A DNA stretch of 41,430 nucleotides from Solirubrobacteraceae bacterium. GTDB lineage: Bacteria > Actinomycetota > Thermoleophilia > Solirubrobacterales > Solirubrobacteraceae. Positions 5,459 to 39,563 of this stretch are shown here, one piece after another; position 1 is the first letter of the stretch, and every line of letters starts with the position of its first letter. The notes beneath the pieces were generated by a model. The model was given only the letters and a program-made list of their open reading frames with translations. It was not told the origin of the DNA and searched no databases. A program made the position numbers and the translations under genes. The stretch is from contig DASVRH010000405.1 in assembly GCA_036388715.1 (NCBI GenBank), positions 1-41,430 on the forward strand, in the 5' to 3' direction.

Positions 5459-5499
5459 GACTTGCGCCGCACCTCACGGTGCGGATATGAACTCCTTGC

Positions 5500-6464: not shown

Positions 6465-6493
6465 TCTCCGGCTTCAGGAATCATGACGGCTCG

Positions 6494-6979: not shown

Positions 6980-7006
6980 GGGGTACGGGCGAAAAGGTCG
7001 TACATC

Positions 7007-7021
7007 TGCCGAATTTCGGCA
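7007..7021. promoter_or_regulatory. Perfect 7-1-7 palindrome TGCCGAA-T-TTCGGCA in the sigma/epimerase intergenic region
   Basis: Read directly from the sequence. It sits 28 nt after the sigma stop and 89 nt before the ATG at 7110. It could be an operator or a weak hairpin; function unknown. Confidence 0.3.
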
Positions 7022-7109
7022 CAGCGGCTCAGACCGCCGTTATCTTCGCCGCTCGGCGTGGCCCGTTCCCCCGCGTCGCGGACCTGCACCACCACCGGAG
7101 ACCAAGCAC

Positions 7110-8093: not shown

Positions 8094-8113
8094 GCGCCTC
8101 ACGGGGGAAAGCA

Positions 8114-9073: not shown

Positions 9074-9078
9074 TCGCC

Positions 9079-12574: not shown

Positions 12575-13203
12575 CGCCCCGCCGCCTCGCCGCCGCCGCC
12601 ACCCGTCCGATCCGCCACCTCCCCGACCGCCGCGCGGCCGTGCGCGCCGCGGCCGCCGTCGCGGCCGCGTGCCCCGGCGAGGTCCGCGTGTGCTGGGACC
12701 TCGACAACACGCTCGTCGACTCCGGCCGCCTGCTGCGCGAGGGCGTGCCGCTCGACGAGGCCGTCCGCAGCGCGGACCCGGTCGCCGGGATGCTCGACTT
12801 CCAGCGCGCGCTCGCCGCGGCGCTCCCCGGCGCCGGCCACTTCGTGCTCAGCGTCCGCGCGCGGGGGATGCGCGACGACACCCTCGCGTGGATCGCGCGC
12901 CACGGGCTCGAGCTCGCGCCCGACGCGGTGGCGCTCGTGCGCAGCCCCGCCGACAAGCCCGCGGTCTGGCGCGCGCTCGCGCGGGGAGGGAAGCTCGTCG
13001 TCGTCGACGACCTCAGCCACGGCCATGAGGGATCGGCCATCACGCCGTACGGACGGCTGGCCGAGCAGGCGCGCCGGATCGCGGACGCCTACGTCGACCT
13101 GGCAGCGATCGGGGCGATCGCCGAGGAGCCGGCGAGCGCCGCGGCGGCCGCCGAGCGCGTCGCGGCGGCGGTGGGCGGCGCGGCTTCGCCTAGTGCTTCT
13201 TGA
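12556..13203 (+). CDS. HAD-superfamily hydrolase (probable phosphatase)
   Basis: HAD motif I is CWDLDNTLVDS (DxDxT) and the late motif is KLVVVDDLSHG. ATG at 12556 overlaps the upstream gene by 19 nt. The track ORF starting at 11521 is a read-through artefact. Confidence 0.7.
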   Translation: MPHRRLTPRRLAAAATRPIRHLPDRRAAVRAAAAVAAACPGEVRVCWDLDNTLVDSGRLLREGVPLDEAVRSADPVAGMLDFQRALAAALPGAGHFVLSVRARGMRDDTLAWIARHGLELAPDAVALVRSPADKPAVWRALARGGKLVVVDDLSHGHEGSAITPYGRLAEQARRIADAYVDLAAIGAIAEEPASAAAAAERVAAAVGGAASPSAS

Positions 13204-23805: not shown

Positions 23806-25410
23806 TTGCTCGATTCGCGGCCACCCGAAGGATCTCCGAGTCGCCGTAGGGCCCTCAGGGCGCTGCGTCGCCGGCTTCCCGTCTTCCTGCTCGTCGCGGT
23901 CGCCGTCCCGGCGACCTCCGTCGCGTACTCGCTGACGCAGGAGAAGCAGTACACCTCGAGCGCCGCGCTGCTGTTCCGCGACTCCGGCCTCGACCAGGCC
24001 ATCCTCGGGATCCAGACCTACCGCACGAGCGGCGACTCCGCCCGCGACGCGGCGACGAACCTCAACCTCGCGAACCTCGACGTCGTCGCCGACCGCACGG
24101 CGCGACGACTCGGCGGCACGCTCCGGCGCAACGACGTCAAGAGCCGCATGGACATCAGCCAGGAGGGGCTCTCGAACATCGTCCGCGTCGAGGCCACCGA
24201 CGCCGACCCGCGGTTCGCCGCCCGTCTGGCCACGACGTTCGCCGAGGAGTTCATCGGCTTCCGCGAGGAGTCCGACAGCAAGCGGCTGGCCGATGCGCAG
24301 CGGATCACCAAGCAGCAGTACGAGGCGCTGCCGGCGGTCACCAAGAACAGCCCGCAGGGCCGCCAGCTGCGAGACCGCTCGCAGCAGCTGGAGATCCTCG
24401 CCTCGCTGCAGACCGGCGGCGCGGAGCTCGTCCAGCGCGCCGACGTGCCGTCGAGCCCGTCGTACCCGCGGCCGCTGCGCAACGCGATCATCGGGCTGCT
24501 GCTGGGGCTGGGCCTGGGCCTGATGCTCGCCTACCTGATCGACCGCCTCGACCGCCGCATCCAGGACCCGGAGGAGATGCAGGAGGAGTTCGCCAAGCCG
24601 ATCCTCGCGACGATCCCGCACAGCGCGAAGCTCGACAAGGGCAAGGGCATCCTCGCCCAGGACGCCGCCACCGCCGAGGCCTTCCGGATGCTCCGGGCGA
24701 ACCTCCGCTACTTCAACGTCGACCGCGGCCTGCACACCGTCCTCATCACCTCCGCCGCGCCGGGCGACGGCAAGAGCACCGTCGCCGCCAACCTCGCCGC
24801 GGCGGCCGCCGCGAACGGCATGAAGACGCTGCTCGTCGAGGTCGACCTCCGGCACCCGACGATCGCCAAGGGCCTCGGCGTCCCCGCGACGCCGGGTCTC
24901 ACGCACGTGCTGGCGCGCGACGCGCAGCTGGACCTCGTCGTGCGGGCCGTGGCCGTCCAGGCCGGCGATCACGACGCGGCGTCCGGCCGCACGATGGACG
25001 TCGTCGTGTCGGGCCCGCTGCCGCCGAACCCGACCGACCTCATCGAGTCCGAGCGCATGCGCGACGTCCTCCGTCAGGCCGCGCAGGAGTACGAGTTCGT
25101 CGTCATCGACACGCCGCCGACGGCGGTCGTGCCGGACGCGATCCCGCTCGTCACCCAGGTCGACGGCGTGGTCGTGGTCGGCCGTGTCGGCAAGAGCACG
25201 CGTGAGGCGCTGGCGCACCTGCGCAAGCAGCTCGACAACCTCGACGCGCCCACGCTGGGCGTCGTCGTCAACGACGTCAGCTCGAAGGCCGCGGGCTACG
25301 CGTACGGCTACGGCTACGGCTACCACGCCGACCCGGACGCCGTCGACGCGTCGATGACGATGAACGGCACGGCCGGCCGCCCGGCCGAAGACGAGCTGCT
25401 GAAGCGCTAG
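23806..25410 (+). CDS. Polysaccharide co-polymerase (Wzz) fused to a BY-type tyrosine autokinase
   Basis: It has an N-terminal TM helix plus a Wzz-like segment, Walker A ITSAAPGDGKST, Walker A' LLVEVDLRHP, Walker B FVVIDTPP and a C-terminal Tyr cluster GYAYGYGYGYH. TTG start at 23806 has GGAGGGG upstream. Confidence 0.9.
   Translation: MLDSRPPEGSPSRRRALRALRRRLPVFLLVAVAVPATSVAYSLTQEKQYTSSAALLFRDSGLDQAILGIQTYRTSGDSARDAATNLNLANLDVVADRTARRLGGTLRRNDVKSRMDISQEGLSNIVRVEATDADPRFAARLATTFAEEFIGFREESDSKRLADAQRITKQQYEALPAVTKNSPQGRQLRDRSQQLEILASLQTGGAELVQRADVPSSPSYPRPLRNAIIGLLLGLGLGLMLAYLIDRLDRRIQDPEEMQEEFAKPILATIPHSAKLDKGKGILAQDAATAEAFRMLRANLRYFNVDRGLHTVLITSAAPGDGKSTVAANLAAAAAANGMKTLLVEVDLRHPTIAKGLGVPATPGLTHVLARDAQLDLVVRAVAVQAGDHDAASGRTMDVVVSGPLPPNPTDLIESERMRDVLRQAAQEYEFVVIDTPPTAVVPDAIPLVTQVDGVVVVGRVGKSTREALAHLRKQLDNLDAPTLGVVVNDVSSKAAGYAYGYGYGYHADPDAVDASMTMNGTAGRPAEDELLKR
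25294..25323 (+). repeat. Hexanucleotide tandem repeat (GGCTAC GCGTAC GGCTAC GGCTAC GGCTAC) encoding the kinase Tyr cluster
   Basis: Read directly from the sequence. There are three perfect consecutive GGCTAC units, plus one further perfect unit separated from them by a degenerate GCGTAC unit. Confidence 0.8.
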
Positions 25411-26192
25411 CCGCGGCGCCGGCGCAGGAACCGGCCGACCCCGCGGGGCCGTGCGATCGGCTCCGGGCGCTCGGGCAGGTCGACGCCCGCGAGCATCGCG
25501 CGCGGCGCGTGGAGCGTGTACCACCCGAGCTGCCCGAGCACGCCGGGGAGATCTTGCTCGAGGCTCTCGAACGCCGGCCGCAGCTCGGGCGGGCGCCGCG
25601 TCGCGTCGTGCGCGTCGCTCGCGACGTTGTGGACGAGGCCGCGCTCGTACAGCTCGATCGAGAAGGCCCGCACGGTGCTGCCGAACTGGCCGGCCAGCGA
25701 GGCCGCCGTCACCGAGCAGAGGATCCCGCGCTCGACGAGCTCGGCCAGGCGGTCGGCGTCGCCGATGAACGAGGGCGAGCGCTCCGGGTGGGCGAGGACC
25801 GGCCGGACGTTGCGGGTCTGGAGGTCGAAGAGCGTCTCCTCGAGCAGCTCGCCCACGGAGGTGTAGGGCGTCTCCACCAGCGCGTAGCGACCCTCTCCGA
25901 GGCACAGGGCGCCCAGGGTCTCGTCGTCGAGGTCACCGACCCGGGTGATGGCGATCTCGCCGCCCGCCACGACGCGCAGCGCCGAGCCGCCGGACGCGAC
26001 CGCGGCGTTGACCTCGGCGACGCGCTCCGGGATGAGGGACGGCGCGAACGGGTGGTCCTCGCGGATGTGCGGCGTCGCCACGATCGTCTCGATGCCGGCG
26101 GCGGCGGCGTGCCGGGCCAGGGCGAGGCTGCCGTCGAGGTCGGGCGGCCCGTCGTCGAGCCCGGGGAGGACGTGGCAGTGCAGGTCGATCAA
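25407..26192 (-). CDS. PHP-family (CpsB/YwqE-type) protein-tyrosine phosphatase
   Basis: The TTG start gives MIDLHCHVLPGLDDGP...TIVATPHI..., the signature N-terminus of CpsB/CapC phosphatases. It is convergent with the BY-kinase, with a 4-nt overlap. Confidence 0.9.
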   Translation of the reverse strand: MIDLHCHVLPGLDDGPPDLDGSLALARHAAAAGIETIVATPHIREDHPFAPSLIPERVAEVNAAVASGGSALRVVAGGEIAITRVGDLDDETLGALCLGEGRYALVETPYTSVGELLEETLFDLQTRNVRPVLAHPERSPSFIGDADRLAELVERGILCSVTAASLAGQFGSTVRAFSIELYERGLVHNVASDAHDATRRPPELRPAFESLEQDLPGVLGQLGWYTLHAPRAMLAGVDLPERPEPIARPRGVGRFLRRRRG

Positions 26193-26199
26193 CGCGCGG

Positions 26200-26889
26200 T
26201 CACGCGGCCGGCGGCGGCGTGACCCGGAAGCGCAGGACGCCGATCGCCTTCTCGGCGGGCTGCTCGTCCCACGGCCTGACGCCGAGCTCCGCGCGGCCGC
26301 CGAGCCGGCGCAGCAGCGCCGCTCGTCCCGGGGTGAGGGGGAACCGCAGCGTCGTGGTGACGCCCTCCATCGTCGGCACGCGGACGTCGCCCGACGGCGC
26401 CGCGTCGAGGCGTACGCCGTTGAGGTTCACGTAGATCTCCTGGCCCCCGGCGATGATGCCCTGCTCGGCGCCGGTCTCGTTGCGGACGCGCAGCCGGAGG
26501 ATCAGGGAGGCCGGGGTCGACGAGGCCGACAGGAGGCGCACCTGCGTGCCGCCGAGCAGCAGCGGGCGGTCCTCGCCGCCGAGCAGGAGCGTGGCGCTGC
26601 GCGTGCTGCAGCGGACGGCGTCGTCGGACGGGCCCGGGTCGGCGACCTCGCTGCACGGCGGGACGCCGCCCGCGTCCGACGAGGTCGTGGTGGGAGCCGT
26701 CGTCGTGGTCGTCCCGGGCACCGTGGCGCCCGCGGGCTCGTTGGTGCCGCTCTCGCGCGGCGGCGCGTCGTCGGCGCGGCCGAACGCAATGATCGCGACG
26801 TCCGCCGCGAGGACGAGCACGAGCACGGCGATGATCGCCTTCTCGAGCGCGGTCGCGCTGCTGAACCTCTTGCCGAATCCCGATGCCAT
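26200..26889 (-). CDS. Hypothetical single-pass membrane protein with a Thr/Pro-rich linker
   Basis: The ATG at 26889 is 3 codons inside the track's TTG start. One TM helix (IIAVLVLVLAADVAIIAF) is followed by a TTTTAPTTTS linker and a beta-rich domain. It lies upstream of the phosphatase in the same operon. Confidence 0.55.
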   Translation of the reverse strand: MASGFGKRFSSATALEKAIIAVLVLVLAADVAIIAFGRADDAPPRESGTNEPAGATVPGTTTTTAPTTTSSDAGGVPPCSEVADPGPSDDAVRCSTRSATLLLGGEDRPLLLGGTQVRLLSASSTPASLILRLRVRNETGAEQGIIAGGQEIYVNLNGVRLDAAPSGDVRVPTMEGVTTTLRFPLTPGRAALLRRLGGRAELGVRPWDEQPAEKAIGVLRFRVTPPPAA

Positions 26890-26985
26890 GGCTGCCAATC
26901 CCGACGGGGGAGCGCCGACGTTAGCCGAATCGGCCCCCCTCGCGACGGCAATGCACCTTCCGCACGTCCTTTAGGCTCCCTGCCG

Positions 26986-27933
26986 ATGCGCTCGACGATC
27001 GCCGCGGCTTTCAGCCTGCACCTCGATCTCGCGGCGGACGAGGCCATCCGGGCGCTGCGCGATGCCGGCGTGCCGGCGATCGTGCTCAAGGGGCCGTCGA
27101 TCGCGACGTGGCTGTATCCCGAGGGGACGCGCCGCTACAACGACATCGACCTCCTCGTGCCGGTGGACGGGCTGCCACGGACGCGCGCGGCGCTGGCGGG
27201 CCTCGGGTACAGCGGCGGCTACGCGCCGCTCGAGGAGGCGCGCGAGGCCCCGGGACACATCGACCACCACGCCGAGAACTGGCGCCGCCCGGGCTCGGGC
27301 ATCGACCTGCACTGGCGCATCCCCGGGATGACCGTGCCCGCCGAGCGGGCGTGGGAGCTCCTGGCCGACCACGTCGAGCCGCTGCCGGTCGGCTCGCGGA
27401 CCCTGCCGGTGCTGGACCACACGGCGCTCGCGCTGCACATCGCGCTGCACGCCGCCCAGCACGCCGGCGTCGTGGACGGGCACCCGCTCCGCGACCTCGA
27501 GCGCCTGGTGGCGACGCTGCCGGACGACGCGTGGCCGCAGGTCGAGCGCCTTGCGGCCGAGGTGGGGGCCACCGGCGCGCTCGCGGTCGGCCTGGGCCAG
27601 ACGCCCCAGGGCCGCGAGATCGCCGAGCGCCACGGCATCCGCGGCGGCATCGACGACCTCCACGTCGCGCTGAACGCCATCGGCGCGCCGCCGTCGACGG
27701 CGGGCCTGAGCACGCTCGGCCGGGGCGTGCTCGGCCGCGCGCCGGCCCGCGACGTCGCCCGCGTCCTCTTCCCGCCGCCGTCGCTGATGCGCGAGACGCA
27801 CCGGATCGCCGGGCGCGGGAGCGCCGGGCTGGCCCTCGCCTACGCCGCCCGCCTGGGCGACCGGCTGGTGCACCTGCCGCGCGCCGTCGTCGCGCTCAGG
27901 CGCGCCCGGCGGCTCCTGCGCGAGGGCGGCTAG
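26986..27933 (+). CDS. Nucleotidyltransferase family protein (PF14907-like uncharacterised nucleotidyltransferase)
   Basis: ATG at 26986 gives ...AIRALRDAGVPAIVLKGPSIATWLYPEGTRRYNDIDLLVPVDGLPRTRAALAGLGY...GIDLHWRIPG. This matches my memory of the family pattern (LKG...R...DIDLLV...LH). The track ORF starting at 25945 is a read-through. Confidence 0.75.
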   Translation: MRSTIAAAFSLHLDLAADEAIRALRDAGVPAIVLKGPSIATWLYPEGTRRYNDIDLLVPVDGLPRTRAALAGLGYSGGYAPLEEAREAPGHIDHHAENWRRPGSGIDLHWRIPGMTVPAERAWELLADHVEPLPVGSRTLPVLDHTALALHIALHAAQHAGVVDGHPLRDLERLVATLPDDAWPQVERLAAEVGATGALAVGLGQTPQGREIAERHGIRGGIDDLHVALNAIGAPPSTAGLSTLGRGVLGRAPARDVARVLFPPPSLMRETHRIAGRGSAGLALAYAARLGDRLVHLPRAVVALRRARRLLREGG

Positions 27934-28901
27934 AGCGCGGGGACGGGCTGCCGGCGCAGCCACTCGACGGTCTGCGCGACGCCCTCCTCGAGCCCGATCC
28001 GCGCCTCCCACCCGAGCAGCCGCTTCGCCTTCTCGACCGAAGGCCACCGGCGCACGACGTCGACCTCGAACGACGGGAGGTGCTCGACCTCGAAGGCGTC
28101 CGGATCCTCGCCGCAGGCGGCCCAGATGACCCGCGCGATGTCGAGCACCGTCCGCTCGTCGGCGGCGCTGACGTTGAAGTCCTCGTTCAGCCCGTTCGGA
28201 GAGGAGGTCGCGGTGACGATCCCGTCGGCGATGTCGTCGACGTGCGTCAGCGTGCGCGTCTGCGTGCCGTCGCCGAAGAGCTGGAGCGGCCGCTGGCCGC
28301 TGAGGACCTTGCGGATGACGTCGGGGACCCTGTGCGCGATCCCCGGCTCGGGCTCGGGCATCTCGCCGGGCCCGTAGGCGTTGAACGGGCGGCAGATCGT
28401 GAAGGGCAGGCCGTGCTCGTCGTGCGCGGCGCGGCAGTAGACCTCGCCGGTGAGCTTGCTGAACCCGTACGCCGAGCGCGGGATCGGCGTGTCGTGGATG
28501 TGCTCCTCGCTCGTGGGGTACTCGGTGGCGCGCTCGAAGACCATGCTCGAGCTCACGTACACGAAGCGCTCGGCGCCGTGGTCCAGCGAAGCGCGGATCA
28601 CCGCGTTGTAGAGCGCGTTGTTGACCTCGGTCAGGGTGTGGGGGAGGCGGTGGAAGTTCGCGATGCCGCCGACGATCGCCGCGAGGTGGATGACGTGGGA
28701 GCAGCCCTGGGTCGCCGCCCGCGCCTCGGAGATGTCGCGCAGGTCGCCGCGGTGCACCTCGCAGCCCTCGCGCATCCACTGGGGCGCCTCGCGCTGGTCG
28801 GAGACGCGCACGTCGAAGGCGGGGTCGCGCAGCAGCCGGCGCACGACGGCGGCGCCGATCGTGCCGGCTCCGCCGGTGACGAGAACCCTGCTCACGGCCA
28901 T
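27930..28901 (-). CDS. NAD-dependent epimerase/dehydratase family protein
   Basis: MAVSRVLVTGGAGTIGAAVV..., with YGFSK (YxxxK) and FGDGTQTRTLTHVDDIADG. Confidence 0.85.
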   Translation of the reverse strand: MAVSRVLVTGGAGTIGAAVVRRLLRDPAFDVRVSDQREAPQWMREGCEVHRGDLRDISEARAATQGCSHVIHLAAIVGGIANFHRLPHTLTEVNNALYNAVIRASLDHGAERFVYVSSSMVFERATEYPTSEEHIHDTPIPRSAYGFSKLTGEVYCRAAHDEHGLPFTICRPFNAYGPGEMPEPEPGIAHRVPDVIRKVLSGQRPLQLFGDGTQTRTLTHVDDIADGIVTATSSPNGLNEDFNVSAADERTVLDIARVIWAACGEDPDAFEVEHLPSFEVDVVRRWPSVEKAKRLLGWEARIGLEEGVAQTVEWLRRQPVPAL

Positions 28902-28930
28902 CGAGGCTAGCCATATACTCGCCGCCGCGA

Positions 28931-29563
28931 ATGACCGAGGCCCGCCCTGACCTGGTGGAGATCGAGGGCCTGGGGCGGAGCTTCGGCGCCCGCGAGGTCA
29001 TCCGCCGGCTGGATCTGCGCGTGCCCGCCGGCGCCCGTGTCGCGCTCCGTGGCCCGAACGGCGCGGGCAAGTCCACGGCCCTGCGCTGCGTCGCGGGCAC
29101 GCTCGCGCCCACGCGCGGGACGGTCGCCATCGACGGCTTCGCGGCGGGCAGCGTCCCCGCCCGGCGCCGGATCGGCGTCTCGTTCGCCCAGGAGCGCTCG
29201 TTCCACATGCGGCTGAACGGCCGGGCCAACCTGATCTTCTTCGCCCAGCTGCACCTCGGCAGCCGCCGCGCCGCGGTGCGCGAGGTGGACGCGCTGATCG
29301 AGGAGCTCGACCTGCGGGAGATCGCGCCCCGCCGGCTCGACCAGTGCTCGACCGGCATGGTCCAGCAGCTCGCGATCGCGCGGGCGCTGAGCGCCGACCC
29401 CGACGTGCTCCTGCTCGACGAGCCGACGCGGTCGCTCGACAAGGAGGCGATCGCGCGGTTCTGGGCGGCGATCGACCGGCGCCCGGACGCGGCGGTGCTC
29501 ATCGCGACGCACCGCGACGAGGATCTCGAGAGGTGCGGGAGCATCGTTGACTTCCCGACCTGA
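28931..29563 (+). CDS. ABC transporter ATP-binding protein
   Basis: Walker A is GPNGAGKST, the signature-like motif is CSTGMVQQLAIARAL, and Walker B is LLLDEPTRSLD. Confidence 0.9.
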   Translation: MTEARPDLVEIEGLGRSFGAREVIRRLDLRVPAGARVALRGPNGAGKSTALRCVAGTLAPTRGTVAIDGFAAGSVPARRRIGVSFAQERSFHMRLNGRANLIFFAQLHLGSRRAAVREVDALIEELDLREIAPRRLDQCSTGMVQQLAIARALSADPDVLLLDEPTRSLDKEAIARFWAAIDRRPDAAVLIATHRDEDLERCGSIVDFPT

Positions 29564-30365
29564 GCTGCCGCGCCTGGGCGCCATCGCCGCCTTCACGCGG
29601 CGGGATGCGTCGAACGCCTCCTCCTACCGGCTCGCGATCGCTCTCGATCTCGTCCTCAGCGTGCTGCCGCTGGTCATCTACTTCTACATCTCGAAGCTGT
29701 TCGACATCCCGCCGAGCGCCGCGCTGCAGAACGCGCCGTCGTACTTCGCGTTCGTCGTCGTCGGGCTCACGCTCGCGACCGTCGTGCAGGCGGGCACCAT
29801 CGGCATCGCGGCGACCCTGCGCCAGGAGCAGTTCACCGGCACGCTGGAGGCGATGGGCGTCAAGCCCGTGACGCCGATCGAGATGGCGCTCGGGATCGCT
29901 TCCTATCCGTTCCTGTTCGGCACGCTGCGCGCGACGCTCTACCTCGTGCTCGCGGCGACGGTCTTCGGCGCCGACTTCTCGGACGCGAGCGTGCCCGGCC
30001 TGGTGATCGGGTTCGCCGTGACCGGCCTCGCCCTCGTGGCGATCGGCATCGCGGTCGCCGCCGTGGTCTTCGTCGTGAAGCGCGGCGAGGTCTTCAGCAA
30101 CATCACCGTCTCGTTGCTCGTGATCCTCGGCGGCGCGTACTTCCCCGTCACGATCTTCCCGGCCGGCGTCGAGGGGGCGGCGAAGGTCGTGCCGACGCGC
30201 TTCGCCTTCGAGGGTCTCCGATCCGCGCTGTTCACGGGGACGGACTGGGCCGCGCCGATCCTCAAGCTGCTCGTGTTCGGTGCCCTCGCGCTGCCGTTGG
30301 CCCTGCTCTTCTTCAGCTGGGCGCTCGACCTCGCGAAGCGACGTGGCTCCCTCGGGCAGTACTGA
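29547..30365 (+). CDS. ABC-2 type transporter permease
   Basis: Six predicted hydrophobic helices. The start overlaps the ATPase gene by 17 nt. The TTG start is as given in the track. Confidence 0.8.
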   Translation: MTSRPELPRLGAIAAFTRRDASNASSYRLAIALDLVLSVLPLVIYFYISKLFDIPPSAALQNAPSYFAFVVVGLTLATVVQAGTIGIAATLRQEQFTGTLEAMGVKPVTPIEMALGIASYPFLFGTLRATLYLVLAATVFGADFSDASVPGLVIGFAVTGLALVAIGIAVAAVVFVVKRGEVFSNITVSLLVILGGAYFPVTIFPAGVEGAAKVVPTRFAFEGLRSALFTGTDWAAPILKLLVFGALALPLALLFFSWALDLAKRRGSLGQY

Positions 30366-31536
30366 GCAGCCGCTGCGCCCCACGCCGCTCGAGGTCGCGA
30401 GCGGCGTGGTCGTCGGCGAGGCGCCGGCGGCCGCCCCGCCCGACGCGGGCGGCGGGCTGAGCCCGCGACAGGCGCTCGAGCGGCTGGTGCTGCCGGCGTT
30501 GCTCCGGCCGCCGTGCCTCGTGAGCTTCTCCGGCGGTCGCGACTCGTCGCTCGTGCTGACGATCGCCGCGCATGTGGCGCGGCGCGAGGGGCTGCCGCTC
30601 CCGAGCCCCATCACCGTCCGGGTCGCCGACGCGCCCGCCGCGCAGGAGGACTGGCACCAGCAGACGCTCCTGCATCACCTCGGCCTCACGGACCAGTGGA
30701 TCAGGCTCGACGTCCCGCAGGGGGAGTTCGACTGGGTCGGCCCGGTCGCGGGACGAGTGCTGCGGCGGCACGGGCTCCTGTGGCCGCCCAACGCGTTCTT
30801 CCACGCGCCGCTCTTCGAGCAGGCGCGCGGCGGGTCGCTGCTCACCGGTGTCGGCGGCGACCAGATGATGGCGACGTGGCGCTCGGCACGGGCGATGCAG
30901 GTGGTGTCGGGTCGCGCGCGGCCGGCCCCCCGCGACGCCCTGCACGTCGGCCTCGCCTTCGCGCCGCGGGCGGTGCGAGCCGCGGTGCGGCGACGGCGCG
31001 ACGACGTCCCTTCGTGGCTGCGCCCGCCGGTGGCACGCGACGTCATGCGCAGGCGCGCGGCCGAGGACGCGAGCGAGCCCCGCCGCTGGGACCGCCGCCT
31101 GCCCTGGGTCGAGCGGCGGCGGATCCTCGCCGCGACACGCTGGAGCCTCGCGCTGATCGCGGCCGACTCCGGCACGCACGTGGCGCACCCGCTTGCCGAC
31201 CCGCTCTTCGTCGGCGCGCTGGCCCGGGCCGGCGGCGCCGGCGGTCTCGGCGACCGTCGCGCGATCATCAACATGCTTCTCTCCGACCTGCTCCCCGACG
31301 TCCTGCTCGGCCGCGCCGACAAGGCGTTGTTCCAGGAGGTGTTCTTCAGCGCGCCGTTCCGGGAGTTCGTGCGGACGTGGGACGGCCGCGGCGTCGACCC
31401 CGCGCTGGTGGACGTCGAGCGCCTTCGGGCGGAGTGGGCGCAGGAGGTGCCGCACTCCCGCACCGCGCTGGTGCTGCAGGCGGCCTGGCTCTCAGCCCAG
31501 GGCGGCGAGGCGGTCGACCGTGGCATCGAGCGCTGA
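30343..31536 (+). CDS. Asparagine-synthetase-domain (PP-loop, lasso-cyclase-like) protein lacking an N-terminal glutaminase-type domain, paralogue 1
   Basis: PP-loop is LVSFSGGRDSS. AsnB C-terminal blocks are HVAHPLADPLF and LLPDVLLGRADKALF. Similarity to paralogue 2 already covers PLEVASGVVVG, so the start must lie upstream of about 30385. GTG 30343 is chosen here and GTG 30280 is also possible. Confidence 0.8.
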   Translation: MAPSGSTEQPLRPTPLEVASGVVVGEAPAAAPPDAGGGLSPRQALERLVLPALLRPPCLVSFSGGRDSSLVLTIAAHVARREGLPLPSPITVRVADAPAAQEDWHQQTLLHHLGLTDQWIRLDVPQGEFDWVGPVAGRVLRRHGLLWPPNAFFHAPLFEQARGGSLLTGVGGDQMMATWRSARAMQVVSGRARPAPRDALHVGLAFAPRAVRAAVRRRRDDVPSWLRPPVARDVMRRRAAEDASEPRRWDRRLPWVERRRILAATRWSLALIAADSGTHVAHPLADPLFVGALARAGGAGGLGDRRAIINMLLSDLLPDVLLGRADKALFQEVFFSAPFREFVRTWDGRGVDPALVDVERLRAEWAQEVPHSRTALVLQAAWLSAQGGEAVDRGIER

Positions 31537-32367
31537 CCAGTCCCTCGGGCGCGTCAGCTCGTAGGCCGGGAGGCTCACGAGGTCGAGCAGGCCGACGGGA
31601 TCGTCGCCGGGCAGGATCGCCGAGCGCTGCGCGACGAGCGGAGCGAACCGCTCGGAGATCGGGACGGGCCGCAACGCGACGTCGTCGCCCCACGACAGCT
31701 TGATCCACCCGCCGAGGGGCACCGCCGCGGGGACCGGTGGCACCGCCAGGCGGCGACGCGTCGCGTCGCGCACGAGCGGCGCCGCGCCGTCGCCCGTCAG
31801 CCGCTCGGCGGCCTCCGGGCGCAGGTCGATCGCACGCGGCCCCGCGAGGGCGTCGCGACCCTCGATCACGAGGACATCATCGGTCACGATCGGCGCCCCG
31901 GCGAGGTGCAGCGCGGCCATCAGCGTGCTCTTCCCGGCCTCCCGCGCGCCGATCACCGCCCACGCCCTGCCGCCCGCGACGAACGCGCCCGCGTGGAGGC
32001 TCTCCCGGCCCGCCCAGCGCGCGAAGACCGCGCCCACCGGCGCCAGATAGGGGTGGACGAGCTCGTCGTCGGCGATCTCGTACGGGGTGACGAACGTGGC
32101 CGAGCGATCCTGCCGACGCAGGACCAGCGATCCGCCGCGCAGCAGCGGGAACGTCGCCTCGTCGCTGCCGATGTGGATCGGCAGCGACCCATCTCCGGTG
32201 CGGCGGTCGATGTCGATACCTCCCCAATCCTCACCAGCGCTGTTGAGAAGGCCTGAATCGACGTCACTCCGGATTTGCAACCCGTAGGCGCCTCGTAGTA
32301 GCGTGCCGACATTCTTCTGCTGCGGCGACGTCGCAGGAGGCCGCCAAGACTTCCAATCAGGAGGCAC
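31492..32367 (-). CDS. HPr-kinase-like (HprK-related) P-loop kinase
   Basis: VIGAREAGKSTLMAAL is the P-loop, followed by APIVTDDVLVI as in HPr kinase/phosphorylase relatives. Start is uncertain. GTG 32367 would sit 1 nt from the divergent peptide ATG, and its first codons CCT CCT are the antisense of that gene's AGGAGG. TTG 32280 is the only other in-frame candidate. Confidence 0.75.
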   Translation of the reverse strand: MPPDWKSWRPPATSPQQKNVGTLLRGAYGLQIRSDVDSGLLNSAGEDWGGIDIDRRTGDGSLPIHIGSDEATFPLLRGGSLVLRRQDRSATFVTPYEIADDELVHPYLAPVGAVFARWAGRESLHAGAFVAGGRAWAVIGAREAGKSTLMAALHLAGAPIVTDDVLVIEGRDALAGPRAIDLRPEAAERLTGDGAAPLVRDATRRRLAVPPVPAAVPLGGWIKLSWGDDVALRPVPISERFAPLVAQRSAILPGDDPVGLLDLVSLPAYELTRPRDWSALDATVDRLAALG

Positions 32368-32368
32368 G

Positions 32369-32545
32369 ATGCCGAAGGCAGAGTATTACGCGCCGTCGCT
32401 CACGACACTCGGGTCCGTGCAGGACCTGACCCTGGGCTCCGGTGGTGGTTTCCCCGACACCTGCGACCTCGCGGTCGGCTCGGTGATCGGCGCCGATCCG
32501 TGCTCCGGTCAGCCGGCGCCGGGCGGCATCGGGACGAAGCCGTAG
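32369..32545 (+). CDS. Lasso-type RiPP precursor peptide (58 aa)
   Basis: AGGAGG lies 4 nt upstream of the ATG. The product is MPKAEYYAPSLTTLGSVQDLTL-GSGGGFPDTCDLAVGSVIGADPCSGQPAPGGIGTKP. The leader fits YxxPxLx3Gx5Tx exactly, and the core starts with Gly1 and has Asp8. Confidence 0.8.
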   Translation: MPKAEYYAPSLTTLGSVQDLTLGSGGGFPDTCDLAVGSVIGADPCSGQPAPGGIGTKP

Positions 32546-32550
32546 GCAGT

Positions 32551-32571
32551 TCCGGCCGCGAACCGGCCGGA
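32551..32571 (+). promoter_or_regulatory. Intercistronic hairpin between the precursor gene and the downstream cyclase-like gene
   Basis: TCCGGCCG cgaac CGGCCGGA forms an 8-bp stem with a 5-nt loop. It starts 6 nt after the precursor stop and ends 6 nt before the ATG at 32578. Confidence 0.55.
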
Positions 32572-32577
32572 CACGCA

Positions 32578-33732
32578 ATGCAGGACGTGGCGGCGGGGAG
32601 ACCCGCCGTTCGTCTGTCCGGACTCGAGATCGCGACGCATCTCGTCTTCGGCCGTGCGCGACACACGCGCCTGCCGGAGGCGCGCGCGGAGTCGCCGCGC
32701 GAGGCGCTGGAGGCGGTCGTCCGCGAGGCGCTCGTGCGGCCGCCGTGCGTCGTCAGCTTCTCGGGCGGCCGCGACTCGTCGGTCGTCCTCGCGGTCGCCG
32801 CGCACGTCGCTCGCCGCGAGGGGCTCCCTCTGCCGGTCCCCGCGACGATCCGCGCGCCCGCGGTGGCCGGGAGCGTCGAGGACGACTGGCAGGAGCGGGT
32901 CGTCGCGCACCTGAGGCTGCCCGAGTGGCAGCGCGAGGTCGTCGACGACCAGCTCGACTTCGTCGGGCCCGTCGCCCGGGACGTCCTCGCGCGGCACGGA
33001 CTGCTGTTCCCCGCGCAGGTCCACTTCCACGTCCCCCTCCTGCGCCACGCGTCCGGCGGCACGCTGCTGACCGGCGCCGGCGGCGACGACGTGCTGGAGG
33101 CGGGCCCGCGGGCGGTGCTCGCCTTCGCCTGGCGCCGGTTCCGCGCGGGTCATCAGCGCACGGCGGTCACGCCGCTGATCGCGGCCGCGCCGCGGAGGGC
33201 CCAGGTCGCGTACGTACGGCGACGGCGCCGGCTGCGCGCCCCCTGGCTGACCGACCGGGCGCACCGGGAGCTCGACGATTCCATCGCCGAGCAGATCAGG
33301 CCGCCCGGCGCGGCGGCCGGGATGCGCTGGACGTACGAGCAGCGCTGGCTCGAGCTCGTCAAGGACAGCCTCGGCCTGCTCGCCACCGATGCGGGCGCCG
33401 CGATCGCCCACCCGGTCGCCGACGGCCGCTTCGTCGCCGCGCTGGCGGGCGCGGCGGGATGGGCCGGGCCGGGCGGGCGCTCGCGGCTGCTGCCGCGTCT
33501 GGCGGGCGACCTCCTGCCCCGCGACGTCCTGCAGCGCCGCGACAAGACGGCCTTCGCCGGCGTCTACTGGAACCGCCACACGCGCGAGCTGCTCGAGACG
33601 TGGCAGGGCGAGGGCGTCGACACCGACGTCGTGGACGTGGAGGCCCTGCGCGAGACGTGGGCGTCCCGCCACGTCAACATGGCGACCGCGCTGCTGCTGC
33701 AGTCAGTCTGGCTGGCCCGCCGCGGCGGCTGA
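32578..33732 (+). CDS. Asparagine-synthetase-domain (PP-loop, lasso-cyclase-like) protein lacking an N-terminal glutaminase-type domain, paralogue 2
   Basis: VVSFSGGRDSS, AIAHPVADGRF and LLPRDVLQRRDKTAF are colinear with, and highly similar to, the 30343-31536 product. ATG 32578 is chosen so the gene does not overlap the precursor gene. Confidence 0.8.
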   Translation: MQDVAAGRPAVRLSGLEIATHLVFGRARHTRLPEARAESPREALEAVVREALVRPPCVVSFSGGRDSSVVLAVAAHVARREGLPLPVPATIRAPAVAGSVEDDWQERVVAHLRLPEWQREVVDDQLDFVGPVARDVLARHGLLFPAQVHFHVPLLRHASGGTLLTGAGGDDVLEAGPRAVLAFAWRRFRAGHQRTAVTPLIAAAPRRAQVAYVRRRRRLRAPWLTDRAHRELDDSIAEQIRPPGAAAGMRWTYEQRWLELVKDSLGLLATDAGAAIAHPVADGRFVAALAGAAGWAGPGGRSRLLPRLAGDLLPRDVLQRRDKTAFAGVYWNRHTRELLETWQGEGVDTDVVDVEALRETWASRHVNMATALLLQSVWLARRGG

Positions 33733-34989
33733 GGCGTCCGGCGCCATGGCCGCGATCTCCGCGGCGTAGCCGAACACCTGCGCGGCGCCGAAGCAGTTCC
33801 ACGGGTCGACGACGAGCGCCTCCGGCGCCGCGAGGCGCGAGATCTCTCGAAGAGGACCGGCTCCACAAAATTCTCTGTGGTTCGTCGCGACGACGACGGC
33901 CTCGGCGCCCGCGACGGCCTCGTCGAAGGTCTGGGTCGGCGTGGGGACGTGCGGGTCGTGCACCGCGACCTCGACCAGCTCGCGCTCGAGCAGGCGCACG
34001 AGCTTGTGGGCCAGCGAGTCGCGCTCGTCGTCGGTGTCGGCCTTGAAGGCCAGGCCGAGCACGGCGACCTTGCGGCCGCGCAGCGCGCCGAGGCGGCGCT
34101 TCATGCCCTCGACGAGGAAGAGCGGCACGCTCTCGTTCACGCGCGAGACGGCGAGCAGCATGCCGGGCGCGTGCGAGCGCTCCTCGCTGAACGTGAAGTC
34201 CTTGCGCAGGCAGGTGCCGGCGGTGAAGCCCGGCATCTTGATCCCGCCCCTGGGGTAATCGTGGTTGATGAGGTCGATGACCTCGAAGACGTTCGCCTCG
34301 TACTGCTCGCAGTCCATCATCAGGAGGTTGGGCAGCGCGAACGTCGTGTAGCGCAGGATGTTGGTCCAGATCTTCGCGAGCTCGGCCTGGACGGGCGTGG
34401 TCTCGACGACGTCGGACTCGTAGACGTCGAACAGCTCGCGGCACACCTGCGTCGAGCGGTCGCCGACGCCGCCGACGATCTGCGGCAGCGAGTCGATCTC
34501 CTCGAAGAACTTGCCGGCCGCGATGCGCTCGGGGGCGTGCGAGACGAAGAGGTCCTCGCCGACCTTGAAGCCGAGCTTCGACTCGAGGTAGCCGGCGACG
34601 AACTCGGTCGTGCCCGGGGCGATCGTCGAGCGCAGGACGACGGAGTGGCCGGGCTCGAGGACCGGCAGGAGGTCGTCGAGGGCCGAGCGGATGTCGCGCA
34701 TGTCGATCTCGATGTGCGAGAACGACGGCGTCCCGATCGTGAGGATGATGTGCTTGGCCCGGGCGGCGTCGGCGACGCGGTCGGAGGCCTCCAGCCCGCC
34801 GGAGGCGTGCACGCGGCCCATGACCTCGTCGCCGCCGGTCTCCTCGAACGGCATGCGGCCGTCGCGGACGGCGGCCAGCCGCTCGGGGTCGCGGTCGACG
34901 CCCACGACGCTCAGGCCGCGGTCGGCGAGCGACAGGGCGAGCGGCAGGCCGACCCGGCCCAGCCCGATGACGGAGACGTCGCGGTCCAC
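33703..34989 (-). CDS. Nucleotide-sugar dehydrogenase (UDP-glucose/GDP-mannose dehydrogenase family, WecC-like)
   Basis: VSVIGLGRVGLPLA is the Rossmann motif, GFTAGTCLRKD holds the catalytic Cys, and LGLAFKADTDDERDS is the C-terminal domain motif. GTG start at 34989. Confidence 0.9.
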   Translation of the reverse strand: MDRDVSVIGLGRVGLPLALSLADRGLSVVGVDRDPERLAAVRDGRMPFEETGGDEVMGRVHASGGLEASDRVADAARAKHIILTIGTPSFSHIEIDMRDIRSALDDLLPVLEPGHSVVLRSTIAPGTTEFVAGYLESKLGFKVGEDLFVSHAPERIAAGKFFEEIDSLPQIVGGVGDRSTQVCRELFDVYESDVVETTPVQAELAKIWTNILRYTTFALPNLLMMDCEQYEANVFEVIDLINHDYPRGGIKMPGFTAGTCLRKDFTFSEERSHAPGMLLAVSRVNESVPLFLVEGMKRRLGALRGRKVAVLGLAFKADTDDERDSLAHKLVRLLERELVEVAVHDPHVPTPTQTFDEAVAGAEAVVVATNHREFCGAGPLREISRLAAPEALVVDPWNCFGAAQVFGYAAEIAAMAPDASAAAAGQPD

Positions 34990-37046: not shown

Positions 37047-39563
37047 ATGCTCCGCCGCGCCCTCGCCGTCGCGTTCCTCGCGACGCTCCTCCTCGCCCCT
37101 CCCGCCTCCGCGATCGACTTCGTCGACGAGGACTTCGCCGCCGGCTTCGAGGAGGTGGTGGTCGCCGAGGGCCTCAACGAGCCGACCGGGATGGCGTACG
37201 GACCCGGTGGCCGGCTCTACGTCGCCGAGCGCGAGGGGCGCGTGCGGGTCGTCGAGCCGGACGGGACGCTGGCCCCCGACCCCGTCGTCGACATCTCCGA
37301 CCACGTCAACTCGTACTCCGAGCGCGGGCTGCTCGGGATCGCGGTCGACAACGACTTCGCCTCCCACCCGTTCCTCTACCTGCTGTACACGTACGAGCAC
37401 GACGGGGAGGACCCGTTGGCGGCGAAGACGTCCCGCCTCACCCGCGTGCGCCTCGACGAGCTGAACCCCTCGGTCGCCTACGCCCCGTTCGAGGAGACGG
37501 TGCTGATCGGCGACGACGACGACGACGGCGACGAGCTCTGCGACATCGGCGAGGTGTGCATCCCGGCCGACGACGAGTATCACTCGATCGGCACCGTCCG
37601 CCAGGGTCCCGACGGGACGCTCTACGCGGGCAGCGGGGACTCCAACGCGACCGGGGACTTCTGGGCGCAGTCCGACGCGATGCGCCCGTTCGACCCTCAG
37701 AGCCTCGCCGGCAAGATCATGCGCGTCGATCGCGACGGCGACCCGGTCGAGCCCTCCTTCTGCACCGACCCCGCGCAGCCGTGCTCGCACGTCTTCGCGA
37801 TGGGCTTCCGCAACCCGTACCGCTTCAGCGTCCGCGGGAACGCGGATCTCATCGTCGGCGACGTCGGGTCCTCGCAGTACGAGGAGGTCAACCGCGTGCT
37901 CCCCGGGCGCGACCACGGCTGGCCGTGCTGGGAGGGCTACGGGTGGACGGCGATCTACCAGGGGCGCGAGGAGTGCCAGGAGCGCTACGCCCTCACTCCG
38001 CCGCCGTCGAACCTGACCTCGCCGTGGATCGTCTACGGCGGCAGCCGCGCGGTCGGGCAGGGCGCCGCGGTCTACGCGGGCCCGACGTACACGGGCGCGA
38101 CCTTCCCGCCGAAGTTCGCCGCGCAGCAGCGCTTCTTCTACGGCGACACCGTGCGCGGGTGGCTGAACACCGCGTACTTCGACGGCGGCGCGGTGCGGAC
38201 GAAGTCGTTCGCGACCGGCGTGAACTACGCGGTCGAGATGATCCAGTCGCCGGAGGGCGACGTCGTCTACAGCGAGTACGGCGGCGCGATCAAGCGGATC
38301 CGCTTCGCGTGCGCGCCGGACGGCACCGCGTGCAACAAGACGCCGATCGCGCGCCTCTCCGCGATCCCCGACCACGGCGAGGACGTCGACGAGATCACCT
38401 TCTCGGCGGCCGGCAGCTCCGACCCAGACGGCGACGCCCTGACCTACAGCTGGGACTTCGACGGCGACGGCGACTTCGAGCTCACCGGGCCCGACGCCAC
38501 GCCGCCACCGCAGTCCTTCGCGCCCGGCCGCTACGTCCCGCGCGTCGTCGTGGGTGACGGCTCGCGCACCGCCGTCGCGCAGCAGGTCGTCTTTCCCGGC
38601 TACGACCCGCCGTCGGTCACGATCGACCCGGTCGACGAGGAGTTCCGCGCCGGCGAGTCGGTCGACGTGAGCGGCTCGGCGAGCGATCCGAACACGCCGG
38701 CCCAGGCGCTCGACCCGCTCGTCTGGAAGGTCACGCTGCTGCACAATGACCACGTCCATCCGCGCGGGCGCTGGGTCGGGCCGACCGCGACGTTCAAGAC
38801 GCTCGACAGCCACGACGCCGACTCCGGCTACCTCGTCGAGCTGACCGCGCGCAACGCGATCGGGATGACGGCGACGAAGTCGGTCCAGCTGCATCCGAAG
38901 ACGGTGAAGGTGACGTTGGCCAGCGACCCGCCGGGGGCGCGGCTGCTCTACGGCGCGCGGGAGGGCTGGGCGCCGTTCACGATCGACGCGGCGGTGAACT
39001 ACACGACGCCGCTGACCGCCGACTACTCCGTCTACTACGAGGGCGAGTGGCTGCCGTTCTCGCACTGGGAGCACACGCCGTCGCAGCAGTTCTCGAACGT
39101 GAAGGTCCCGGACCACGACGTCACGTACACCGCGGTCTACGGCCCGCGGAGCACGAAGGAGCGCCCGCCGGGAGAGCTCGCGCCGCCGCTCGAGCCGCCG
39201 GGCCCGCCGATCGGCCCGTTCCAGCCGCCGCGCGGCCCGCGGGGGACGCTGGGCGCGTTCCGCGGTCGTCGCGTGAGCGGCACCGCCACCGCTCCGCTCG
39301 GCGTCCGCCGGGTGCGGATCGCGCTGGCCCGCCGCGCCGGCCGCCGCTGCCGCCTCCTCCGCGCCGGGCGCTTCACGAAGCCCACCCGCTGCTCGCGCCG
39401 GACGTGGACGAAGGCGAGGCTCGGCCGCGGCAAGGCCACCCGCGCCTGGTCGCTCACCCTCCGCAAGCCGCTCCGCCCGGGCCGCTACACGATCGTCGTC
39501 CGCGTCGAGGACATGGCGGGCGCCACCGCCAACCGCTCCTTCGCCCGCCGCCTCACGCGCTAG
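37047..39563 (+). CDS. Secreted PQQ-type soluble sugar dehydrogenase beta-propeller + PKD + conserved middle module + Arg-rich C-terminal domain
   Basis: Signal peptide is MLRRALAVAFLATLLLAPPASA. GSDH-like motifs are GLNEPTGMAYGPGGRLYVAEREGRVRVV, ERGLLGIAVD, LAGKIMRV and FAMGFRNPYR. The PKD block reads ITFSAAGSSDPDGDALTYSWDFDGDG. It is a paralogue of the N-terminal two thirds of the 13190-16873 product. Confidence 0.9.
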   Translation: MLRRALAVAFLATLLLAPPASAIDFVDEDFAAGFEEVVVAEGLNEPTGMAYGPGGRLYVAEREGRVRVVEPDGTLAPDPVVDISDHVNSYSERGLLGIAVDNDFASHPFLYLLYTYEHDGEDPLAAKTSRLTRVRLDELNPSVAYAPFEETVLIGDDDDDGDELCDIGEVCIPADDEYHSIGTVRQGPDGTLYAGSGDSNATGDFWAQSDAMRPFDPQSLAGKIMRVDRDGDPVEPSFCTDPAQPCSHVFAMGFRNPYRFSVRGNADLIVGDVGSSQYEEVNRVLPGRDHGWPCWEGYGWTAIYQGREECQERYALTPPPSNLTSPWIVYGGSRAVGQGAAVYAGPTYTGATFPPKFAAQQRFFYGDTVRGWLNTAYFDGGAVRTKSFATGVNYAVEMIQSPEGDVVYSEYGGAIKRIRFACAPDGTACNKTPIARLSAIPDHGEDVDEITFSAAGSSDPDGDALTYSWDFDGDGDFELTGPDATPPPQSFAPGRYVPRVVVGDGSRTAVAQQVVFPGYDPPSVTIDPVDEEFRAGESVDVSGSASDPNTPAQALDPLVWKVTLLHNDHVHPRGRWVGPTATFKTLDSHDADSGYLVELTARNAIGMTATKSVQLHPKTVKVTLASDPPGARLLYGAREGWAPFTIDAAVNYTTPLTADYSVYYEGEWLPFSHWEHTPSQQFSNVKVPDHDVTYTAVYGPRSTKERPPGELAPPLEPPGPPIGPFQPPRGPRGTLGAFRGRRVSGTATAPLGVRRVRIALARRAGRRCRLLRAGRFTKPTRCSRRTWTKARLGRGKATRAWSLTLRKPLRPGRYTIVVRVEDMAGATANRSFARRLTR

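Follow-up and report, generated by a model that had tools for sequence, protein, structure and literature searches.

Experimental work on the tailoring of lasso peptides by a kinase and a nucleotidyltransferase is, to our knowledge, confined to a few systems of Bacillota and Proteobacteria, and we know of no biological role established so far for the paeninodin-type peptides. The locus described here belongs to an actinobacterium, a Solirubrobacteraceae bacterium (Thermoleophilia; GenBank assembly GCA_036388715.1, contig DASVRH010000405.1), of which positions 1 to 41,430 were analysed; this whole stretch is called the window. Its central element is a minus-strand gene at 31492–32367 encoding a P-loop kinase related in fold to HPr kinase/phosphorylase (HprK/P) and phosphoenolpyruvate carboxykinase (PEPCK). 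The protein is probably an ATP-dependent Ser/Thr kinase for the adjacent lasso-type precursor, in the functional class of PadeK, PsmK, BsfK and LppK. The locus is best explained by phospho- or glycosyl tailoring of the peptide, with the acceptor residue and the activity inferred.

In paeninodin-type clusters the C-terminal Ser of the precursor is phosphorylated by an HprK homologue, while in the pseudomycoidin system PsmK adds phosphate and PsmN adds hexose (PMC8498205, PMC6993621), such transfer having been shown in vivo only for PsmN (PMC6993621). An earlier note made from the letters of this DNA had given both accounts correctly. PadeK, ThcoK, SyanK and the PsmK/PsmN pair resemble the present system in that a kinase, joined by a nucleotidyltransferase in psm, tailors a lasso peptide, and the paeninodin/pseudomycoidin gene set (K, A, C, B1, B2, N and D) is the one found in most relatives of the window module. 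They act on a C-terminal Ser, whereas the related cores described below mostly carry a penultimate Ser and the window core ends in TKP, a comparison made by description only. They also come from Bacillota and Proteobacteria, whereas the window is actinomycetotal and its cyclases are truncated.

BsfK of Bradymonas sediminis is a lasso precursor kinase probed by mutagenesis, which phosphorylates core Ser3 and is strongly stimulated by the leader-binding protein B1 (PMC10368454). Its system is similar to that of the window in having an HprK-like P-loop kinase, a PF14907-type nucleotidyltransferase (bsfN) in the lasso cluster and a precursor, BsfA, that also lacks a C-terminal Ser. BsfK is, however, 340 amino acids long with an N-terminal half unrelated to that of the window kinase, and it acts on Ser3 with the help of B1, whereas the window core has Gly3, an unconserved Ser2 and no B1; the Bsf leader has Ile at −2 and the window leader Thr. 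The LPP systems (LppK and LppN) likewise combine an HprK-like kinase and an NTP-transferase with a leader-bearing peptide in capsular polysaccharide loci; LppK phosphorylates core Ser3, and LppN caused no detectable product change in a heterologous host, for which the authors speculate that a partner is encoded outside the core cluster (PMC13381572). Unlike the window, which has two cyclase homologues, the LPP clusters have no cyclase and possess a signal-peptidase-like leader peptidase and a leader-binding protein, neither of which is found in the window. Metanodin, also considered, is unrelated and has no kinase or nucleotidyltransferase (PMC12670498). The idea of tailoring is itself established; new here are the size of an uncurated kinase family, a two-cyclase architecture without B1 and B2, an altered acceptor region and recurrent integration into polysaccharide loci.

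Kinase fold, active site and gene structure

The peptide module of the window spans 26986–33732 and comprises, in this order:

26986–27933, plus strand: PF14907 nucleotidyltransferase (100.2 bits against a cut-off of 31.2), with K35-G36-P-S ... D53-I-D55, H109 and H155
27930–28901, minus strand: NAD-dependent epimerase/dehydratase (PF01370, 179.7 bits)
28931–29563, plus strand: ATPase of an ATP-binding cassette (ABC) transporter (PF00005, 93.6 bits), syntenic in relatives
29547–30365, plus strand: ABC-2 type permease (PF01061, 41.4 bits)
30343–31536 (earliest possible start 30280), plus strand: short Asn-synthetase-like protein 1, putative lasso cyclase (PF00733, 29 bits; SGGRDS PP-loop)
31492–32367, minus strand: HprK/PEPCK-fold P-loop kinase, putative precursor-peptide kinase, 291 amino acids, GTG start
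32369–32545, plus strand: lasso-type precursor of 58 amino acids, leader MPKAEYYAPSLTTLGSVQDLTL, core GSGGGFPDTCDLAVGSVIGADPCSGQPAPGGIGTKP, ribosome-binding site GGAGG at 32360–32364
32578–33732, plus strand: short Asn-synthetase-like protein 2 (PF00733, 44.9 bits), 33 nucleotides downstream of the precursor

Within the kinase, the following positions are of interest:

31924–31950, minus strand: GAREAGKST (Walker A), kinase residues 140–148
31864–31890, minus strand: IVTDDVLVI, kinase residues 160–168
Key residues: H125, G140, G145-K146-S147, D163-D164, R178, D181-L182-R183, R204 and R206

The kinase has the HprK/PEPCK fold, keeps its catalytic residues, is conserved, and stands in close synteny, in many genomes, with genes for a precursor, a cyclase, the nucleotidyltransferase and the ABC transporter. 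Its AlphaFold2 model (mean predicted local distance difference test score, pLDDT, 89.8; predicted template modelling score 0.87; residues 1–20 predicted to be disordered) matches the ATP-dependent PEPCKs in Foldseek with E 3e-8 and a template modelling (TM) score of about 0.5, and the HprK/P structures 1ko7, 1kkl and 3tqf with E 2e-5 to 6e-5. HprK/P and PEPCK share one fold. Both resemble the kinase in the P-loop fold and in the arrangement of His, Walker A and Asp-Asp, but they differ from it in substrates, domain additions and genomic context, and no HPr-binding C-terminal helices were identified in the kinase. The best sequence match of the family profile in the PDB is the Coxiella Hpr(Ser) kinase 3tqf (E 0.007; His, GKS and DD aligned), while a PDB search with the single kinase sequence gave generic ABC P-loop matches only (E about 1).

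The closest experimental comparison is with BsfK, the sequence of which was taken from the Methods of PMC10368454. The two proteins share 30% identity over the 113 amino acids of the catalytic core (E 4e-6), and the BsfK residues identified by mutagenesis, H148, G163, K169, S170, D186 and D187, correspond to H125, G140, K146, S147, D163 and D164 of the kinase with identical spacing. All six BsfK-essential residues are therefore kept, and the loss of catalytic residues on alignment that the earlier note had considered was not seen. Across 26 diverse members of the family, H125, G145-K146-S147, D163-D164, R178, D181-L182-R183, R204 and R206 are invariant. A word-indexed search retrieved 412 homologues (best E 8e-107), and an exhaustive profile search found 854 representative clusters with E≤1e-30, or 2,349 with E≤1e-10, so that, with clustering at 50% identity, the family comprises at least 854 clusters. 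It resides mostly in Thermoleophilia, Acidimicrobiia and Micromonospora. Judged from sequence and model, the protein is an HprK/PEPCK-fold kinase with an intact active site, a member of an uncurated family and no genuine HPr kinase.

The open reading frame (ORF) itself has a GC content by codon position of 0.75/0.55/0.87, typical for genes of this window of 72% GC. Genes buried in long stop-free frames were missed by calling based on third-position GC (GC3) of whole ORFs, and frame plots and homology were used instead. Before the conserved GAYGL strand the frame offers a single start, GTG 32367, which is one base away from the precursor ATG at 32369; it overlaps the ribosome-binding site of the precursor, and the promoter of each gene must therefore lie inside the coding sequence of the other. 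A scan of 31300–32800 for promoters and terminators found nothing, which carries little weight at 72% GC. At their convergent 3′ ends, kinase and Asn-synthetase-like protein 1 overlap by 45 nucleotides (31492–31536), and a similar overlap is seen in the relatives L004, L062 (87 nucleotides) and L063 (69 nucleotides); individual loci are denoted by such L or P numbers. The earlier note had thus described correctly the ORF with its two motifs, divergent from the precursor, as ORF, coordinates, codon GC and homologues agree, and its HprK-like assignment holds at the level of fold and catalytic residues. Its assignment of 26986–27933 to PF14907 was confirmed by a score far above the cut-off.

Gene neighbourhood, precursors and candidate acceptors

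A scan of one genome per species with a query alignment of eight closer kinase sequences yielded 55 loci, almost all from Solirubrobacteraceae, Gaiellaceae, other Thermoleophilia and Acidimicrobiia. The kinase family is present in Micromonospora genomes as well. Usually the precursor or precursors stand on one side of the kinase, and on the other side, converging with it, are genes for the Asn-synthetase-like protein, the leader peptidase B2 (transglutaminase-like, PF13471), the leader-binding protein B1 (PqqD-type, PF05402), the PF14907 nucleotidyltransferase, the ABC-2 permease and the ABC ATPase. A lasso-type precursor lies beside the kinase in 51 of the 55 loci, a short Asn-synthetase-like cyclase was found in 47, B1 in 44, B2 in 40, PF14907 in 38 and the ABC permease in 35, several loci that miss a component being truncated contigs. 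BY-kinase (bacterial tyrosine kinase) was found in three and CpsB in one. By these counts, the kinase and the nucleotidyltransferase belong firmly to the peptide module, a pattern shared with the paeninodin, pseudomycoidin, Bsf and LPP systems. The nucleotidyltransferase tracks the peptide module (38/55) and not the BY-kinase (3/55), a distinction which the earlier note had proposed as a test.

Micromonospora clusters show the kinase and PF14907 ORFs overlapping head to tail, as in one operon, with B2 not nearby and no flanking glycan-assembly genes, and L016 consists of kinase and precursor only. Some Solirubrobacteraceae loci (L011, L045, L002/L061 and L042) have two cyclases and two precursor types (DKK..DG and W..PDY) but only one set of genes for B1, B2, the nucleotidyltransferase and the ABC transporter; L045 has two kinase genes.

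The window nucleotidyltransferase is a divergent PF14907 member, its nearest relatives outside the window's own clade being 33–39% identical. These belong to lasso clusters (L041, L053, L054 and L066) or to PF14907::PF13471 fusions (P0273 and P0279). K35-G36, R49, D53-x-D55, H109 and H155 do not vary in sets of 37 and 18 sequences, and the AlphaFold2 model (pLDDT 89.5) has a pol-beta-type fold with Foldseek matches to MenT1 and ANT(2'')-Ia. Between the nucleotidyltransferase and the ABC genes of the window stands the epimerase/dehydratase gene (27930–28901), which could supply a nucleoside diphosphate (NDP) sugar; a gene of this kind also adjoins the nucleotidyltransferase or the peptide cluster of L001, L056, the P0268 contig, L064 and L066.

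The 58-residue precursor meets the expectations for a lasso precursor, with a YxxPxL leader (YYAPSL)...G.....T, Thr at −2 (LTL before G1), a small residue (Gly) at position 1 and, within the expected span of positions 7–9 for Asp/Glu, an Asp at position 8. Its core, beginning GSGGGFPD, would permit a G1–D8 lactam and also contains Cys10 and Cys23. The model NF033521 (lasso_leader_L3) scores 18.1 bits on it, slightly under the cut-off of 19. Orthologues of the precursor occur in L001/L056 and L057, and the three distinct cores of this clade are collinear over 25 residues, G-[SA]-G-x-G-F-P-D-[TS]-C-D-[LF]-A-V-G-S-V-[IV]-G-x-D-P-C-S-G, followed by a variable tail and a conserved T-K-P or T-P-K-P end.

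Acceptor residues were surveyed in 72 distinct cores encoded beside this kinase family. A penultimate Ser is present in 53 of the 72 (74%), and Ser or Thr occurs within the last three residues of 63. Since it is the most widely shared feature across otherwise unrelated cores, the penultimate Ser is the obvious candidate for a family-wide phosphorylation site in the relatives, unlike the strictly C-terminal Ser of paeninodin. It spans unrelated core types (...NASP, ...NCSS, ...CSSA and ...GSI among the precursors of L002–L060). Both known acceptor positions, the C-terminal Ser and Ser/Thr3 of the core, are missing from the window core, which ends in GTKP and not in Ser, as the earlier note had pointed out. 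Such kinases are nevertheless not bound to the C-terminal residue, as the Ser3 sites of BsfK and LppK show (PMC10368454, PMC13381572). The earlier note had listed Thr34, Ser24, Ser16, Thr9 and Ser2 as possible acceptors; the first four are conserved in the clade, whereas Ser2 is replaced by Ala in L001. Candidate hydroxyl residues, conserved among the three distinct cores and left unranked, are accordingly limited to Ser/Thr9, Ser16, Ser24 and the Thr of the C-terminal T(P)KP.

The cores of relatives (L002–L055) have a further peculiarity, a K-x5-D-[GY] motif in 51 of the 72 at variable distance from the leader Thr. Asp or Glu occurs at core positions 7–9 in only 18 of the 72, assuming cleavage after Thr-x, and a canonical N-terminal ring of 7–9 residues is therefore impossible for most relatives. 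Either they may be cleaved at an unusual site or their ring chemistry may be out of the ordinary, perhaps joining a Lys side chain to Asp.

The window clade and its maturation genes

The arrangement seen in the window is rare. It is shared with about three other genomes, L001/L056 (near-identical to each other) and L057, in the common order Asn-synthetase-like protein 2, precursor, kinase, Asn-synthetase-like protein 1, ABC permease, ABC ATPase, epimerase, nucleotidyltransferase, membrane protein, CpsB and BY-kinase, and in all of them the module lies within a polysaccharide locus. A metagenome scan for further members of the clade returned none above 51% identity. All module ORFs are intact in the window, L001/L056 and L057.

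The two Asn-synthetase-like proteins are paralogues with 43% pairwise identity. Protein 1 occupies the family-conserved position, convergent with the kinase in 47 of the 55 loci, and protein 2 is kept in L001, L056 and L057. Both exceed the PF00733 cut-off of 21, are about 385–400 amino acids long and consist of the synthetase domain only; by the family profile, the cyclases align with E. coli AsnB from residue 206 on and lack its N-terminal glutaminase-like domain. No BLAST similarity was found between the short cyclases of the window and the full-length 578-residue cyclase of L066. A second macrocycle made by the second cyclase, as in class V lasso peptides, was considered and set aside, as the gelatinamin ring is formed by a clostripain-like transpeptidase instead of an Asn-synthetase homologue (PMC13178200) and the idea has no precedent here.

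Neither B1 nor B2 occurs in the window or in the pieces of about 20 kb covering L001, L056 and L057, as judged by Pfam, tblastn and family hidden Markov models (HMMs) trained on 41 B1 and 38 B2 sequences from the related loci. By its gene content, the window cluster lacks two defining features of a canonical lasso cluster, B1 and B2, and its cyclases are truncated; the earlier note had noticed neither this absence nor the pair of truncated cyclases. Two paralogous cyclases for a single precursor, without B1 and B2, are kept in three to four genomes. The leader in this clade retains YxxPxL and Thr(−2), motifs normally read by B1 and B2, despite their absence.

Ratios of nonsynonymous to synonymous substitution (dN/dS) are 0.42–0.43 for the kinase, 0.30–0.36 for the precursor and 0.15–0.32 for the epimerase and dehydrogenase that flank the module. 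Between the window and L001/L057, dS is about 0.5–0.7 in the module and about 0.3 in the interleaved polysaccharide genes; with GC3 near 0.9, dS is probably underestimated, and the dN/dS values are therefore upper estimates. The divergence of the module relative to its flanks suggests faster evolution or exchange of the peptide module.

By analogy with the described systems we infer phosphotransfer and its acceptor, which donor the nucleotidyltransferase uses and what it makes, the order of the steps and removal of the leader without B1 and B2 in cis, and the pathway would probably run as follows. The 58-residue precursor would be synthesised first, and the kinase would phosphorylate a hydroxyl residue (Ser/Thr) of the linear core, with K146 and S147 of Walker A holding ATP, D163 and D164 holding Mg2+ and H125 supporting catalysis. 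The PF14907 nucleotidyltransferase would build on this phosphate, the likeliest addition being a sugar donated by an NDP-sugar, for which the adjacent epimerase/dehydratase and the surrounding polysaccharide genes may be the source. A protease not encoded in cis would remove the leader, one or both short Asn-synthetase-like enzymes would then close the G1–D8 lactam, and the ABC-2 transporter would export the product.

Polysaccharide surroundings and competing explanations

Several observations weigh against a kinase acting on the adjacent precursor. The protein lies below every curated cut-off: TIGR04352 and TIGR04355, which the earlier note had suggested as a check, give 22.8 and 11.6 bits against cut-offs of 200 and align over about 60 residues only, and PF07475 has no match even at E≤1. 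In the structure comparison, small-molecule kinases (PEPCK) come out on top. The core has Lys at −2 where the family has its penultimate Ser, and Gly at position 3 in all three cores of the clade in place of the Ser/Thr3 used by BsfK and LppK. B1 is missing although it strongly stimulates BsfK (PMC10368454), and with B2 also missing, lasso maturation in cis is incomplete. Further, dN/dS reaches 0.48–0.65 for the cyclases and 0.63 for the nucleotidyltransferase, and amino-acid identity between the window and L001/L057 is 58–73% in the module as against 86–92% in the polysaccharide genes (27930–28901 and 33703–34989).

TIGR04352 and TIGR04355 are the nearest curated sequence models, yet the kinase is a member of neither, and no curated Pfam or NCBIfam model claims it. 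Weak matches recur in the family, with TIGR04352 in 17 of 26 members (P-loop region), PF07475 in three (best 2.4e-5) and TIGR00679 in two. A literature search on the Pfam entry ScmC, a weak precomputed match on the L066 kinase, found nothing relevant.

Pfam annotation of the whole window revealed a large polysaccharide locus with the peptide module inside it. The locus includes Bac_transf, Wzy-like proteins, a flippase, glycosyltransferases, at least six epimerase/dehydratases, an aminotransferase, UDP-glucose dehydrogenase, WecG, BY-kinase and CpsB phosphatase. Features outside the module are:

13190–16873, minus strand: large secreted protein with a glucose/sorbosone dehydrogenase (GSDH) beta-propeller, PKD and FG-GAP repeats (Pfam)
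23806–25410, plus strand: BY-kinase, Wzz plus P-loop (Pfam)
25407–26192, minus strand: CpsB-type PHP phosphatase (Pfam)
26200–26898, minus strand: membrane-anchored protein, beside the nucleotidyltransferase in the window clade
37047–39563, plus strand: large secreted protein with a GSDH beta-propeller and PKD (Pfam)

The membrane-anchored protein has no family match in Pfam or NCBIfam, and tblastn matches it in L001, L056 and L057. Similar giants with GSDH, PKD and Laminin_G flank the clusters of relatives (L062, 4878–9671; L065, 2088–4172), and GSDH occurs in nine of the 55 loci.

Glycan genes recur near the kinase elsewhere in the family. Bac_transf lies within 10 kb of it in 14 of the 55 loci. 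The two are often immediate neighbours, and in L063 Bac_transf runs in the direction of the cluster; a GFO/MocA oxidoreductase occurs in 11 and WecG in eight. In L064 (region 4291–9921), the gene for a PF14907::PF13471 (B2) fusion is flanked co-directionally by Bac_transf and BY-kinase to one side and by an epimerase and WecG to the other, and no precursor, kinase or cyclase is visible on this 9.9-kb contig. A nucleotidyltransferase that stands beside BY-kinase with no peptide module visible indicates that the link to polysaccharide loci may be functional and not accidental. Paeninodin-type lasso and LPP clusters of Bacilli are also often found inside capsular polysaccharide loci (PMC13381572, 2026). 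It is conceivable, though rather doubtful, that lasso-type peptides modified by kinase and nucleotidyltransferase are wired functionally into polysaccharide assembly, being phosphoglycosylated with sugars of the locus and serving as a glycan carrier, primer or regulator and not as free antibiotics. The pathway of the clade would then have been remodelled for that role, without B1 and B2, with a new acceptor site and with a second synthetase-domain-only cyclase, perhaps for a second cross-link. The recurrence of Bac_transf, the context of the L064 fusion and the capsule co-localisation in Bacilli are compatible with such a role.

A different and less probable use of the same surroundings would be that the kinase, perhaps with the nucleotidyltransferase, acts on a non-peptide substrate of the polysaccharide pathway, such as a sugar, a sugar acid or a lipid-linked glycan, and that the peptide genes are mere neighbours. 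The module does lie inside the 41-kb locus, its core lacks the usual penultimate Ser, and the fold is closest to that of small-molecule kinases; the phosphonate kinase model FomB also matches 14 of 26 family members weakly and scores 18.4 bits on the kinase against a cut-off of 400. The kinase is nevertheless found beside precursors in 51 of 55 loci whether glycan genes are nearby or not, as in Micromonospora, where none flank it, and its catalytic residues match those of peptide kinases with identical spacing. In L064, a close relative of the nucleotidyltransferase stands between BY-kinase and an epimerase on a contig without visible peptide genes, which would suit a glycan substrate, but this protein carries a fused lasso leader peptidase domain and so still suggests a peptide substrate.

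Decay has a similarly small probability: the module would be an orphaned remnant after loss of B1 and B2, its kinase kept by inertia or yielding a linear phosphopeptide only. The loss itself, confirmed even with family-specific HMMs in the window, L001, L056 and L057, the relaxed constraint of the module relative to its flanks and the rarity of the clade in the metagenome scan would fit such a history. All seven module ORFs are, however, intact in three to four genomes whose proteins differ by 30–40%, the precursors keep YxxPxL and Thr(−2) in the leader as well as G1...D8 of the ring, and every dN/dS is below 1. Components are scattered elsewhere too, as in L016 and in Micromonospora without B2 nearby, so that B1 and B2 could act in trans, and pseudomycoidin forms without a leader or leader peptidase (PMC6993621).

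Equally improbable is that phosphorylation has become obligatory in this variant, with the N-terminal domain of the kinase replacing the leader-binding protein and the phosphate or phosphoglycosyl group needed for cyclisation or retention of the thread. The kinase is retained where B1 and B2 were lost, its start codon abuts the precursor gene, and the C-terminal T(P)KP is conserved though the preceding tail varies; the authors of the pseudomycoidin study also speculate that bulky C-terminal modifications help to keep the threaded topology (PMC6993621). The same N-terminal domain is nonetheless present in relatives with B1, which argues against a clade-specific replacement.

That the protein is a genuine HPr kinase/phosphorylase regulating carbon metabolism can practically be dismissed, for although Walker A, His and DD motifs are held in common, neither PF07475 nor TIGR00679 matches it, its N-terminal domain is different, its TM-score to HprK/P is about 0.3 over the query, no HPr or phosphotransferase system genes occur in the window and its synteny is fixed with genes of ribosomally synthesised and post-translationally modified peptides.

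Phosphorylation of the adjacent precursor thus stays the probable function of the kinase. The locus points to an uncurated family of kinases, numbering at least 854 clusters, in soil actinobacteria that have been little studied, with precursors, cyclase, B1, B2, nucleotidyltransferase and exporter alongside. The variant of the window is a natural experiment on what the kinase recognises and on whether the modification can replace canonical handling of the leader. Its polysaccharide locus brings the pattern of co-localisation with capsule and polysaccharide genes to a second phylum and provides a testable link between these peptides and cell-envelope glycans.

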